From IMG/VR virus record IMGVR_UViG_2537561977_000008: a stretch of DNA of 14,425 bases; one strand, given 5' to 3'. The stretch is from a virus. Lineage: Duplodnaviria; Heunggongvirae; Uroviricota; Caudoviricetes. This document shows, piece by piece, positions 568 to 11,652 of this stretch (within the stretch, counting starts at the first letter, position 1; each line of letters begins with the position of its first letter). Under the pieces are notes generated by a model. The model saw only the letters and a program-made list of their open reading frames with translations. It had not been told where the DNA came from and ran no database searches. A program made the translations under genes and the position numbers.

Positions 568-572
568 CACAA

Positions 573-596
573 CATCAGGGCGCATCCGCCCTGATG
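573..596 (+). terminator. Perfect 10-bp inverted repeat (CATCAGGGCG-catc-CGCCCTGATG) downstream of parR; candidate intrinsic terminator or operator palindrome
   Basis: Read directly from the sequence: a 10-bp GC-rich stem with a 4-nt loop, followed by ACTTTAA (a weak U-tract). It lies between the parR stop (567) and the next start (631). Confidence 0.35.
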
Positions 597-630
597 ACTT
601 TAACCCGGGAGCATAAACAAGGGGGACACA

Positions 631-963
631 ATGCAACACATTGACAGAGAAAAAGCGCAGCGACTGATTGAGCGGATGGAGGCGCTGGCGAAAGAAGAAA
701 ATGTCAACATCCAAAAAATAGCTGAATGTGGCCAGATAGTTCTTCGTCGTGAAAAAGACCTCAAACAACTGATGTCTGGCGAAACCAGCAAAACATGGAC
801 TTCAGGCGAGAAGACGGTTTACTGCAGTTTCTGCAATAAATCCCAGTACGAAGTCACAAAGGTGATTGCCGGACCGTCTGTTTACATCTGCAATGAGTGC
901 GTGGATTTGTGCAATGAAATTATCAGGAAAGAAGTGACAGACAAAAAGGAAAAAAACGCATGA
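631..963 (+). CDS. Small protein (110 aa) with a C-terminal ClpX-type C4 zinc-binding domain; no AAA+ module
   Basis: ATG at 631 preceded by AAGGGGGA. The C-terminal half ([39 protein letters not shown]) is near-identical in motif to the N-terminal zinc-binding domain of ClpX ([39 protein letters not shown], recalled). The N-terminal 60 aa is an unrelated charged helical region. Confidence 0.7.
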
Positions 964-1187
964 ACAGAAAACAGAAACAAGAGTTGAAATACTTCTTACG
1001 TAAAGAAATTGCCAGGCTGGAAGATGTGGAATCTCAATCATCAGAAATTCCGTTCGGAATGGATATCAACGACGCCCGTATGCTTCAGGCATACCGCATA
1101 GCCCTGGCTGCACTACAGAGAAAAGCACCAGACATCAACCCTCGCCAACAGGAAGAACAGGAACAGCACAAAGGAGGCAACCAGTGA
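960..1187 (+). CDS. Hypothetical small helical protein, 75 aa
   Basis: ATG overlaps the upstream stop (ATGA at 960-963), indicating translational coupling. Charged, helical composition; no recognisable family. Confidence 0.45.
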
Positions 1188-2114: not shown

Positions 2115-3134
2115 TCAGGATGTGGGCTGGGTGTCTAACAGTGCGTAAGGGTTAAAGCGGATCACCTCTTCGCCAAGCCAGTCATTGATGTGCTTCATGG
2201 CCTCCATGACGGGCATCAGCTCGTTAATTGCGTAAACCCGCGCGGCCTTCTCCACATCACCAAACGCACTTTTTTCGCCCGGCATCGCCCCCATCAGTTG
2301 CGGCGGAACGCGGTGCGCAGCCAGCACATCATCACGGGATGCCGCCTTAACATTCATGAACTCATCCTTTGCGGTGATCTGCTGGAACGGCAAAATTTGC
2401 ACCCCCTCTTTGCCCCCGTTGGGCGCATGAATGAGCACGTTTTTAAACGCACCACCACCACGTGCCCCCTGTAGCGTTTCTTTCAGGGAGTCCATGCTTT
2501 CGCGGTTTACCTGCGCTGCACCGATGTAGATGATGCACCCGGCGTGGGATCCGTTGTCGTAGTACAGTTTTCTGAACATGTCCGCCGAATGAGAAAGGCT
2601 GGCCGAGAGTAATGCGCCAAGATATTCCGGCATGCCGTAGATTTCCTGGTTAATATCCGGATTCATCAGGTGGCACACTTTGCCAGGACGAAACTGAAAC
2701 GCATCCTTGCCATCCTGCACATACCACCATGATTCAAGATCGCTTCCGCGTCGCATGTATTTCGCCAGGGCGTGCCGTAATTTAAGCGGTTCGCCGAGCA
2801 TATTGCTCCGAAGCTCAAGGAATGCGTTACCGAACACAAACCAGTCCAGCGCCAGCGCCGAGAAATCCTGCCGGGAAAGCAGCGGGTGCGGAATATAGCA
2901 GCCGAGCAATACATTGCGCTTAAAGTAAAGCGCAGACTGATGCCAGGACGTTTGCCGGGCAGCTCTTGCCAGACCGTACCAGTCCACCGGGGTTTCATAC
3001 CACCGCCCGTTATCAGCACAGTACATATTGTCCAGCAGGTCATGCCCGGTCAGGCGGTAAGGACCATCAAATGTGAATGCACTGAGCGACGATTCTTTCC
3101 TGAGCGCATCAGCGAGATCAATGCGTGAACTCAT
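2115..3134 (-). CDS. Q: Portal protein (P2 gpQ-like), 340 aa
   Basis: Long minus-strand ORF. The start is chosen at the internal ATG (MSSRIDLADAL...) so that it does not overlap the upstream terminase gene. Size and position (downstream of terminase large, next to the cos-side end) match P2 Q. Confidence 0.85.
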   Translation of the reverse strand: MSSRIDLADALRKESSLSAFTFDGPYRLTGHDLLDNMYCADNGRWYETPVDWYGLARAARQTSWHQSALYFKRNVLLGCYIPHPLLSRQDFSALALDWFVFGNAFLELRSNMLGEPLKLRHALAKYMRRGSDLESWWYVQDGKDAFQFRPGKVCHLMNPDINQEIYGMPEYLGALLSASLSHSADMFRKLYYDNGSHAGCIIYIGAAQVNRESMDSLKETLQGARGGGAFKNVLIHAPNGGKEGVQILPFQQITAKDEFMNVKAASRDDVLAAHRVPPQLMGAMPGEKSAFGDVEKAARVYAINELMPVMEAMKHINDWLGEEVIRFNPYALLDTQPTS

Positions 3135-3159
3135 GCGCACTTTTTTATTTTTCTGCTCA

Positions 3160-4912
3160 TCAGAACTCCATAACCGTGAAACGCTCGTTTTCTCCTTCGC
3201 CGCCAATCGGTTCGTTAATGACAGCAAGCATGGTTGCCCACGCAAGGTCGCCGTGGCTGATCCCCCTCGCGCGGTCCGTTTCGTAAGTGATAAAACCGCC
3301 CGGTGTTTTCACCTTACGCACGGCGTTAAAGGCCGCAACCAGCTCGCGTTCGGCGCGATCGTATTCCCACCGCCCGGCACGCATTATTTGCAGCATTTTC
3401 AGTACCAGCGACCGTTTTGATGACAGCGTGAAGGTGTAAGGGATGGCGGCGGGAAAAAACCGTTTCACTATCTGATAGACGGCATCCCCGTGCCCGCCCG
3501 TCGCATCAATGCCGATGTGTTCCACGTTGTAGCGATACGTGAACTCTTCAATAACTCTGGCCTGCTCTTCAAAATTCCAGCCCCTGAACGCGTCGCGTCT
3601 CCACCGTTCTGAAACGACTACCAGGAACAGCCGGAGGAACCACCACGGACACAGCGCCGCTGTCGCCGTTACCACTGCTGCCGTTTGCGTCATACCCAAT
3701 CCATACCGGACGATTCCCCATCGGGCGGGGGGCAAAGGGTTTCCAGTCTTTCCAGTCGTCGTATCCGTCAACACCGCAGCCAATCAGGATATTCAGGTTA
3801 AATGCCGATTCCCCTTCGCGGACAAACTCACACATATAGAGATTGCGGAACTCGTCTTCGGTGTTTTCATCACGAATTTCATCAATATCGGTGTGTTTCC
3901 AGCCGTGATTAACCACATCTTCCAGCGTGACAATTTGCCGCCACGTCCGGTCAGGGCAGATAAGCCCGTTATGCAGCGTTTTCCAGTCCACAGAAAAACG
4001 CTGGCGTTTATGCGCGGCCTTTTTCTCGTTCCAGCGGTCGCCGTTCCAGTAGGCGTATGCCTCGTGCGTTTCGGTGGATGGCGTGGAGAAGCAGGTGCGC
4101 CGCAGTCCGCTGAGGGTTGCCATAGCGCCAGCCACCTTGCGCAGTTCAGCAAAGCGACTGACCCAGAAAAATTCATCAAAATAAAAATTGCCCGTGTAAG
4201 ATTGCGCCGTCGCAGCAGAAGTGCCGAGAAAATGCATCTCTGCGCCGTTGGAGAGGATGATTTTATCGCCCCCTTTCAGCTCCACATCGACTTCAGCCGC
4301 GGCCTTCTGAATAATGCTTTTAAACTGGAACGCCTGACGACGCGACGCAGACAAAAAAATCTGGTTACACTGGTAAGGTTGTGCCACATCGTCACGCAGC
4401 GCCATCAGCAGTGCTTCCTGTGCAAAATACCAGGTCGCCCCAATCTGTCGGGATTTCAGGATCATCCTGTTACGTATCCCGGCTTCCCTGCAAAGCGTCA
4501 GGGAGTCAAACCAGCCCCGCTGATGCCACTCCAGCCTGCTGATGATTTTTTCCCGCAGTGCGGCAATCTGTTCCGGCGTGAAATGATTTTTGAGTTTTTT
4601 CGCCCGGCCTTTCTTTCCTGTGGCCGTCGCATCCGGCTGGCCATCATGCAGTTTTTTAAGCTGCCGGGTCAGCAGGTCTATTTCCTTAAAGTCACCACCT
4701 GTTTTATTCTGTTTTTCAGTAAGCTGGATGAGGCGCGCATCGATGGACTGCGTGACACGCTGCACGGGTGGCGTTTCATCCCACTGGTCGCGTTTTTTCC
4801 ACGCATAAATCGTGTTCGGGTTTATTCCCATCAGACGTGATATTTCTGCGGGCGGATAACCCTGCCAGTAAAGTTGCCGCGCACGCTGGCGCACAAAAGC
4901 GTCCTGAATCAT
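3160..4912 (-). pseudogene. P: Terminase large subunit (P2 gpP-like ATPase/nuclease), split into two frames by a 1-nt indel in a homopolymer run
   Basis: The N-terminal 447-aa ORF (3569-4912) matches recalled P2 P (ILKSRQIGATWYF, NQIFLSAS, FLGTSAATAQSY, FSTPST, NRPVWIGYD). The C-terminal 207-aa ORF (3160-3783, other frame) carries the rest (YNVEHIGIDATG...HGDLAWATM...MEF). The frames switch at the CCCC run on the + strand at 3581-3584. Confidence 0.85.
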
Positions 4913-9908: not shown

Positions 9909-9993
9909 CGCCGATAAGCGGGCCATTGAATTACTGGAACAGCGCAGGCTGCAACGACTGAACAACGAGGACAACAACCATGCTGAAAACTGA
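9673..9993 (+). CDS. o-spanin (Rz1/LysC-like outer-membrane lipoprotein), overlapping the i-spanin gene
   Basis: Lipoprotein signal with lipobox (FLTLALLSGC), a Pro-rich mature region, and the typical overlapped architecture inside and extending past the i-spanin gene. An alternative start is ATG 9703. Confidence 0.65.
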   Translation: MNSYATISRQMHVPALFLTLALLSGCTSTQNASAPPPSFRFIPEGLTAPVLPPPFPVTPSWGNIGIWSDSLMDALETCNADKRAIELLEQRRLQRLNNEDNNHAEN

Positions 9994-10446
9994 TTCCCTG
10001 CGTGAAGCCATGACCCGTTCATGCCGGTGGTGTCATGCCAACCCGGAAAAATTCACCATTTTCGTGGAGAGCGGCAACATTGAAACGACCGGAGAAACCC
10101 CATCGTTTGTTTACCGCTATCAGATAGTGATGTTTGTCATGGATTACGCCGGAGAGCTGGACGACCTCACGCTGCCGCTGCTGGCGTGGTTATCCGAAAA
10201 TCAGCCACAGTTGTTGCTCAATCCGGAGCGTAATCAGGACATCAAATTTTCCGCCGTTATCAATGACGATGACAGCGCCGATCTCCTGTTTACGCTCCCC
10301 CTGCGGGAACGCGTTCGCATCACGCGCAGCAGTCAGGGCACACCGCAGGCAGAACACCTGCCGGAGCCAAAACCCCGCCTGCCCTCTTCCGAAGGCGACT
10401 GGTCGCATGTATTCCAGGATGTGACGTGGGGGAAAGCGATGGATAA
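9980..10446 (+). CDS. R: Tail completion protein R (P2 gpR-like); as given it reads through into S, probably because of a 1-nt deletion in a G5 run
   Basis: The N-terminus (MLKTDSLREAMT...KFTIFVESGNIETT...LPLLAWLSENQP) matches recalled P2 R. As given, the frame continues without a stop into the S-like sequence (one 364-aa ORF, 9980-11074). Adding one G to the run at 10428-10432 would end R at TAA 10444-10446, overlapping the S ATG (ATGGATAA). Confidence 0.6.
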
Positions 10447-11074
10447 GGCATTCACCCGCGTGGATGAAACCTTTGAGGCTATCCGCGACAGCCTGAATCA
10501 GCAGGCCATTAATAACATCGCCAGAAAGCTGGCACAGGATTTACGCCGCGCCCAGCAGGCGCGTATCCGGTCACAGAAAGCGCCGGACGGGACCGCATGG
10601 ACACCACGCAGACGCCGCGTAACCCGGATACAGGAGCGCATTCGCTTTATCTGGAATAACGAAGCACGCACGCTGAAAAACTGGCATCACGACACGGGGA
10701 AATACGGGCGAACCATCACCGGGTGGGATGAGGATAAAAACAATATCCGCACGTTTTACCGGGATGACATCGACCGTTTTCTGGAAATACGCACCCGGCG
10801 CATCAACCAGGACAGCACCAGGCGCGTCTCCATGTTCGTAAAACTGCGCACCGCCCGCTACCTGAAAGCCCGTGCAGATGCTTCCGGTGTGACGGTGGGT
10901 TACAGCGGCGTGGCCGCACGTATTGCACGCGTTCATCAGTTCGGTGAGCGCGATCAGGTTGCGCCGGGCATTTTCACCGATTACCCGGTACGTGAGCTGC
11001 TGGGTATCAGCCAGGCAGATGAGCGCCTGATTTATAACACGGTGCTGGGCAGGATTGCGGAGGCTGTACGATGA
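10439..11074 (+). CDS. S: Tail completion / virion morphogenesis protein S (P2 gpS-like)
   Basis: Internal ATG at 10439. The C-terminal region (…VGYSGVAARIARVHQFGERDQVAPG...YPVRELLGIS) is typical of the phage virion morphogenesis (gpS) family. The stop overlaps the V start (ATGA at 11071). Confidence 0.6.
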   Translation: MDKAFTRVDETFEAIRDSLNQQAINNIARKLAQDLRRAQQARIRSQKAPDGTAWTPRRRRVTRIQERIRFIWNNEARTLKNWHHDTGKYGRTITGWDEDKNNIRTFYRDDIDRFLEIRTRRINQDSTRRVSMFVKLRTARYLKARADASGVTVGYSGVAARIARVHQFGERDQVAPGIFTDYPVRELLGISQADERLIYNTVLGRIAEAVR

Positions 11075-11652
11075 GCGCAGAACTCATGCGACTGCTGAGC
11101 AATATCATCCGCACCGGGATCATCTCTGAAGTTGATGAGGAATCCTGGTGCGTGCGCGTTCGCAGCGGCGAACTGGAAACAGGCTGGCTGCGCTGGAACA
11201 CCACGCGCGCGGGAGACTTCAACGTGTGGTTTCCGCCATCACCAGGCGAACAGGTGGCAATTGCCTGCATCGGCGGCAACCCGGAAACCGCCATGATAAT
11301 CGGCAGCCTGTGGAGTGATGCCATTCCGGCACCCGGCAAAAGCCTGAAAGAAATCGTGGTCAGCGCGCCGGACGGCGCGGTGTTCCGCTACGACGCGGAC
11401 GCAGGCGCACTGAGCGCAAGCGGCATGAAAACGGCCACTTTGCAGGCATCCATCAGCGTGACACTGAACACGCCTGTCGTGGAATGCACAGACCTTCTGA
11501 GAACAGCGACGCTTGACGTCACAAAAGGGGGAACGATGAGCGGCAATATCACGCACAGCGGCGGCGATTTCACCTCAAACGGCATCACAGTGCATACGCA
11601 TAAGCACGGTGGCGTTAAAGGTGGCAGCGATTCGACAGGAGGCCCGCAGTGA
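11071..11652 (+). CDS. V: Baseplate assembly / spike protein V (P2 gpV-like), 193 aa
   Basis: IRTGIISEVDEE...FPPSPGEQVAIACIGG...KGGTMSGNITHSGGDFTSNGITVHTHKH matches recalled P2 V (IRTGIIVETD...APSVGEQVLILAVGG...KGGTMRGNIEHTGGELSSNGKVLHTHKH). Confidence 0.85.
   Translation: MSAELMRLLSNIIRTGIISEVDEESWCVRVRSGELETGWLRWNTTRAGDFNVWFPPSPGEQVAIACIGGNPETAMIIGSLWSDAIPAPGKSLKEIVVSAPDGAVFRYDADAGALSASGMKTATLQASISVTLNTPVVECTDLLRTATLDVTKGGTMSGNITHSGGDFTSNGITVHTHKHGGVKGGSDSTGGPQ

Follow-up and report, generated by a model that had tools for sequence, protein, structure and literature searches.

The locus studied here raises the question of whether two tail genes of a P2-like prophage, R and S, are really fused or only appear to be so in the deposited sequence. 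In the window, by which we mean the whole stretch of 14,425 nucleotides that was analyzed, an R-like and an S-like sequence are joined in frame in a single 364-aa ORF, as a preliminary description made from the letters alone had pointed out. That description favored a one-base homopolymer deletion and kept a novel tail-completion architecture as the alternative. By exact-sequence match, the window is contig ADUP01000048.1 of Escherichia coli LT-68 (assembly GCA_000188815.2). The region corresponds to the late operon of a P88-like prophage (Xuanwuvirus, Peduoviridae), with the gene order portal, terminase, scaffold, capsid, gpM, gpL, X, lysis genes, R, S, V, W, J, I, and H. The features of the R-S region are collected in Table 1.

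Table 1. Features of the R-S region and positions of the private indels (window coordinates)
Feature	Position	Strand	Description
R-S ORF as written	9980..11074	+	364 aa, ATG start; deposited as EFZ57412.1, "phage virion morphogenesis protein [Escherichia coli LT-68]"
Gene R	9980..10446	+	155 aa after restoring one G; predicted P2 gpR-type tail-to-head joining protein / tube terminator
R true stop	TAA 10444-10446	+	In the frame that follows the lost base
G5 run	10428..10432	+	Exactly five G, context TGGGGGA; site of the missing base
ATGGATAA	10439..10446	+	R stop overlapped by the start codon of S; in intact relatives, the two genes share 8 nt
Purine-rich GGGGGAAAGCG	upstream of ATGGATAA	+	
Gene S	10439..11074	+	Intact in the window, 211 aa; predicted P2 gpS / Mu gpG-type tail completion ("virion morphogenesis") protein
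ATGA	11071..11074	+	S stop overlapping the start of baseplate gene V (11071-11652)
Private indel sites	3147, 3571, 5083, 6094, 6133, 7253, 7785, 8059, 8582, 13474, 14379, 14389		14 indel bases

Both parts of the ORF were recognized by Pfam. P2_Phage_GpR (PF06891; cutoff, 25 bits) matched residues 1 to 130 over its full length (profile 1 to 133 of 133; E = 6.8e-39; 133.5 bits), and Phage_tail_S (PF05069; cutoff, 24.3 bits) gave a significant match whose best stretch was residues 275 to 356 (E = 8.4e-27; 94.3 bits). The homologs of S carried the PF05069 annotation throughout the protein search. As literally written in the window, R is not a separate gene; a stand-alone gene of about 155 aa between the lysis cassette and S was obtained only after restoring one G. 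Indeed, inserting a G in the run of five (G5) led to an R ending in TWGESDG, with its TAA overlapping the ATG of S, exactly as had been proposed. The nearest relative, the E. coli FDAARGOS_943 prophage, encodes exactly the restored R, and its S protein does not differ from that of the window either. S has its own start overlapping the R stop (the ATG within ATGGATAA, which is in frame with the 364-aa ORF) and is followed, after the ATGA junction, by V-W-J-I. By homology and from published work on P2, the two proteins are predicted to play the roles of P2 gpR, the tube terminator or tail-to-head joining protein, and P2 gpS, the tail completion protein or sheath terminator; P2 mutants lacking tube terminator or tail completion functions make overly long tubes or sheaths and are defective in joining heads (PMC11099176, PMC11784142).

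The junction is organized differently in the relatives of this prophage. In all 13 phage records with a full-length match, the R-S interval measures 1096 nt, compared to 1095 nt in the window, and those of the 13 that are annotated harbor two genes each. In P88, P88_4B11, Chuche, and the FDAARGOS_943 prophage, these are genes of 468 nt (155 aa) and 636 nt (211 aa) overlapping by 8 nt, the FDAARGOS_943 interval also measuring 1096 nt; in Shae_phiSM, R is likewise annotated with 468 nt, and the second gene, called with a start farther downstream (615 nt), has no overlap with R. Four of the four aligned phage records read GGGGTG at the junction. Among 121 IMG/VR alleles, 113 had the T (GGGGTG), 8 had a G instead, giving a run of six (G6), and none had G5; matches to the intact allele were found on at least 120 IMG/VR contigs. 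The T-to-G change is synonymous (GGT to GGG, Gly) and creates the six-G run. The preliminary description can be refined in that G6 is confined to the window's own sublineage, most relatives reading GGGGTG.

The FDAARGOS_943 prophage, 99.8% identical to the window across 14.4 kb, reads G6 and keeps R and S separate. The identical S protein is encoded as a separate gene in ten more chromosomal copies, all ten of which read G6, and the exact S protein was present as a stand-alone gene on many contigs. Searching for the exact G5 junction returned none of 1016 E. coli complete-genome records, the G5 junction pattern had no match in IMG/VR, JGI metagenome, or GTDB-representative contigs, and the 364-aa fused protein was absent from the Logan contigs, which are built from short-read runs.

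The LT-68 contig itself is rich in differences of the same kind. Compared to FDAARGOS_943, it differs at 24 positions, made up of 9 substitutions and 15 indel bases. Leaving the G5 aside, 14 indel bases and 8 substitutions are private to the window with respect to eight close relatives, and nearly all of the private indels lie within or adjoin short single-base runs. Measured against FDAARGOS_943, indels occur at 4 of the 20 runs of 6 nt and at 3 of the 7 runs of at least 7 nt, and the indels of the window split or distort the reading frames of portal, terminase, capsid, gpM / small terminase, gpL, X, I, and H. Homopolymer miscalls thus have a high base rate in this contig, which as a whole looks like a low-accuracy draft.

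The strongest point against a miscall is that the identical 364-aa product is also encoded by two finished chromosomes, CP044191.1 and CP026802.1 (Shigella sonnei ATCC 29930), in both of which the neighboring genes are mostly intact. At face value, replication in three independently produced assemblies is the pattern expected for a real allele. Furthermore, G runs are hot spots of genuine slippage, and the prophages of Shigella and enteroinvasive E. coli decay, which also weighs against a miscall.

Each of these chromosomes nevertheless has a sister that reads G6. CP044191.1 and CP032523.1 (G6) have three derived SNPs in common and carry the same IS insertions; 4 substitutions and 2 indels separate them across 20.6 kb, and at each indel CP044191.1 lacks a G. 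The region contains just two G6 runs, the focal one and one in the terminase gene (window positions about 3721 to 3727), and these are where the two indels lie. CP026802.1, in which the junction lies around position 1,455,260, differs by one SNP from CP026836.1, which reads G6 and is listed in the literature as S. boydii; in addition, CP026802.1 is short of a G both in a G5 run and in the focal G6. The IMG/VR contig L048 has the same three derived SNPs as CP044191.1 and CP026802.1, yet it reads G6, and the window clusters with FDAARGOS_943 (G6). The G5 carriers are hence three separate tips, each with a G6 sister and each with further private homopolymer deletions, while all five assemblies without private indels read G6. 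The fusion was found neither in a phylogenetically coherent set of genomes nor in any assembly free of other homopolymer indels. As to whether fused R and S exist in related genomes, the identical product in two chromosomes speaks for it only formally: each of the two stands beside a G6 sister and has other private G-run deletions, and they resemble repeats of one miscall more than a confirmation.

Three other interpretations of the junction were discarded on the way. That G5 is a real inherited allele, considered on the basis of the two chromosomes and a four-way alignment, was dropped after G6 had been read in L048, CP032523.1, and CP026836.1. A haplotype linked to G5 (11332C/12426T) was dropped as well, both sites being private to FDAARGOS_943 and the other relatives matching the window. 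Loss of the T from GGGGTG as the origin of G5 was ruled out by the nearest relatives of all three carriers, which read G6.

Two further assemblies of long-read style show defects elsewhere in this prophage. UFYX01000005.1 has private indels, and its scaffold and tape-measure genes are split; CP029794.1 has a private indel, one C missing from a C5 run at window-equivalent position 2288, and lacks a portal gene call. This shows that homopolymer and indel problems are common for this prophage.

Because each carrier has a G6 sister and other private G-run deletions, G5 is best understood as a recurrent under-call. We estimate at roughly 85% the probability that the missing G is a sequencing or assembly under-call of the error-prone G6 tract and that R and S are really separate genes; that the error arose in the reads or the assembly, rather than by mutation in the DNA of the strain, is inferred from the sequence comparisons. 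A real origin requires three independent identical deletions in lineages only a few SNPs old, plus further real G-run deletions, whereas an error origin requires only that G6 was under-called in error-prone assemblies, which make such errors elsewhere too. The explanation preferred from the start, a one-base homopolymer deletion artifact joining R and S, is thus strengthened by the G6 and separate genes of FDAARGOS_943 and by the 14 other private indel bases.

According to this under-call explanation, the window holds two ordinary tail genes, R with 155 aa and S with 211 aa, the TAA of R overlapping the ATG of S in ATGGATAA. In the sublineage, the synonymous GGT-to-GGG change would have turned GGGGTG into G6 near the 3' end of R, and the LT-68 draft assembly would then have under-called G6 as G5. 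The loss of the base would join R residues 1 to 151, followed by Lys-Ala, to Met1 of S, the last four residues of R (ESDG) being replaced. Since S lies in the -1 frame relative to R, any loss of one base shortly upstream puts R onto the S frame; the clean appearance of the fusion follows from the geometry of the overlap and is no evidence of design.

We consider it unlikely, though worth weighing, that G5 is real and that the G6 tract is an in vivo slippage hot spot which lost one G independently in three strains (LT-68, S. sonnei ATCC 29930, and that of CP044191.1), so that in lysogens of Shigella and E. coli the coupled R/S pair repeatedly came to encode a single R-S polypeptide. The product would be this polypeptide, possibly accompanied by free S from the internal start but with no free R, and for the resident prophage the lesion would be either disabling or neutral. 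The occurrence of the same allele in three assemblies of different strains fits this explanation, as does the retention of the S start codon and of the purine-rich stretch upstream of it; moreover, the CP044191.1 prophage is broken by IS elements, so that decay does occur there. However, it calls for three identical independent events on tips that are 1 to 4 SNPs per 12 to 20 kb away from their G6 sisters, and it also demands that a second G6 deletion in CP044191.1 and the G5-run deletion in CP026802.1 be real. The absence of the allele from the 1016 E. coli complete-genome records and from all IMG/VR contigs with this junction, as well as the lack of a Logan contig with the fused protein, argues in the same direction.

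A single real G5 mutation could instead have passed between near-identical prophages on a short patch exchanged by homologous recombination, which would account for G5 not following the SNP tree. The prophage is mosaic and evidently mobile, with near-identical copies in S. sonnei, in the strain listed as S. boydii, and in E. coli, and the SNP density is low enough to leave room for a short conversion tract. We nevertheless regard this as highly improbable: there is no linked marker accompanying G5, and such a spread leaves unexplained why G5 occurs in precisely those assemblies that have other private homopolymer deletions.

Fused R-S proteins were also searched for among 5.8 billion proteins and protein clusters. 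Only two representatives had both domains, and no established fused R-S family was found in this search. One of the two, P0037, is a singleton in which about 53 residues spanning the R-S junction have been lost in frame; the other, P0134, is a fragment and comes from a long-read contig in which frameshifts break many genes. Other chimeric matches (S+V, R+scaffold, and S+capsid) were singletons too. A 312-aa R-S product, about 53 residues short, lies at positions 3001 to 3939 of a Logan contig (SRR27904698; L129) from a P2-like phage, at 40% identity. The lost part takes in the C-terminal third of R along with the N-terminal residues of S. The surrounding phage genes appear intact, and the product could be either a real deletion variant or an assembly artifact. 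This survey effectively refutes the view that tail completion makes use of a genuine R-S fusion maintained by selection, or of a programmed frameshift site, even though a 1:1 fusion is conceivable for two proteins that, judging from their roles (PMC11099176, PMC11784142), sit at the same tail end: there is no cluster of fused proteins, the other two-domain cases are the singleton and the broken-contig fragment, and all close relatives keep the 8-nt overlap arrangement. The proposed novel tail-completion architecture thus does not hold up, as there is no coherent fused lineage and only isolated singletons from different events. Taken together, the spread of G5 by recombination and a selected fusion are left with a few per cent.

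The prophage shows several further peculiarities outside the junction. The copies in CP026802.1, CP026836.1, FDAARGOS_943, and LT-68 are only 1 to 10 SNPs apart per about 12 kb, and such proximity across Shigella and E. coli hosts indicates a very recent spread of infectious phage. Around window positions 570 to 1170 (ORFs 631-963 and 960-1187) lies a mosaic early-region module, which in the window and in FDAARGOS_943 contains a ClpX-type zinc-finger ORF (110 aa) and a 75-aa ORF; the Shigella copies (L126/L127/L131, about 219 to 1204) have an unrelated 174-aa ORF adjoining ParM/StbA-like and plasmid-stability genes. Two insertion sequences of the IS3 family (15889-17045 and 18849-20005 in L126; 15430-16586 and 18390-19546 in L132) bracket the tail-fiber / tail-fiber-assembly segment, which lies next to a Cin-like resolvase, and they truncate a Caudo_TAP gene (137 aa versus 177 aa). 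The loci of CP026802.1 (L127) and CP026836.1 (L131) diverge sharply past about 14.4 kb, in the tail-fiber region next to the resolvase, which may reflect opposite orientations of an invertible segment. Finally, an unannotated stretch of 271 bp in Aeromonas phage AP1 (MT713136.1, 254 kb; positions 242157 to 242427) is 97.8% identical to window positions 10689 to 10959, inside S. One would not expect such a match in a jumbo Aeromonas phage, and contamination or a chimeric assembly may account for it.

For users of these records, EFZ57412.1, annotated as a virion morphogenesis protein, and the same call in two finished Shigella-type chromosomes most likely reflect a miscalled homopolymer, and the case is a lesson in quality control: because the miscall recurs at the same G6 tract, the agreement of three public assemblies is no proof. 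The genes underneath are the well-known P2-family R and S, and the fusion is most probably no real feature. A real G5 would amount to a lineage-restricted frameshift of a resident prophage, with R made only as a fusion; it would be of modest interest for tail assembly and still no new class of tail protein. Were the hot-spot explanation true, these lysogens would show, as a natural experiment, whether a tail can still be built when the tube terminator and the tail completion protein are covalently linked.

The intact arrangement can be compared with known systems at several distances. A PDB sequence search gave no matches. The closest is FDAARGOS_943 (NZ_CP065615.1), whose WP_000920573.1 and WP_000356353.1 are identical to the R (with one G restored) and the S of the window; unlike the window, which combines G5 with 14 other indel bases, it has G6 and intact genes throughout. 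Phage P88 encodes gp33, "tail protein" (YP_009113076.1), and gp34, "virion morphogenesis protein" (YP_009113077.1), in a region with 98% nucleotide identity to window positions 9980 to 11074. Like the window, P88 has lysis genes upstream, V, W, and J downstream, and the ATGGATAA overlap, but it reads GGGGTG in place of GGGGG and therefore has two genes, of 155 and 211 aa. The P88_4B11 record annotates R and S as Tc1 and Ne1. In P2, likeness was judged by Pfam family, gene order, and length: gpR (P36933, 155 aa) belongs to the same family (PF06891) and has the same length as the R of the window, gpS (P36934, 150 aa) belongs to the same family (PF05069) but is shorter than the S of the window (211 aa), and the order R-S-V-W-J-I is the same. 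More distantly, SPP1 gp17/gp16.1 and lambda gpU/gpZ (Tc1/Ne1 in the Virfam scheme) are functional analogs of gpR/gpS (PMC11099176, Table 1), although the tails of SPP1 and lambda are non-contractile.
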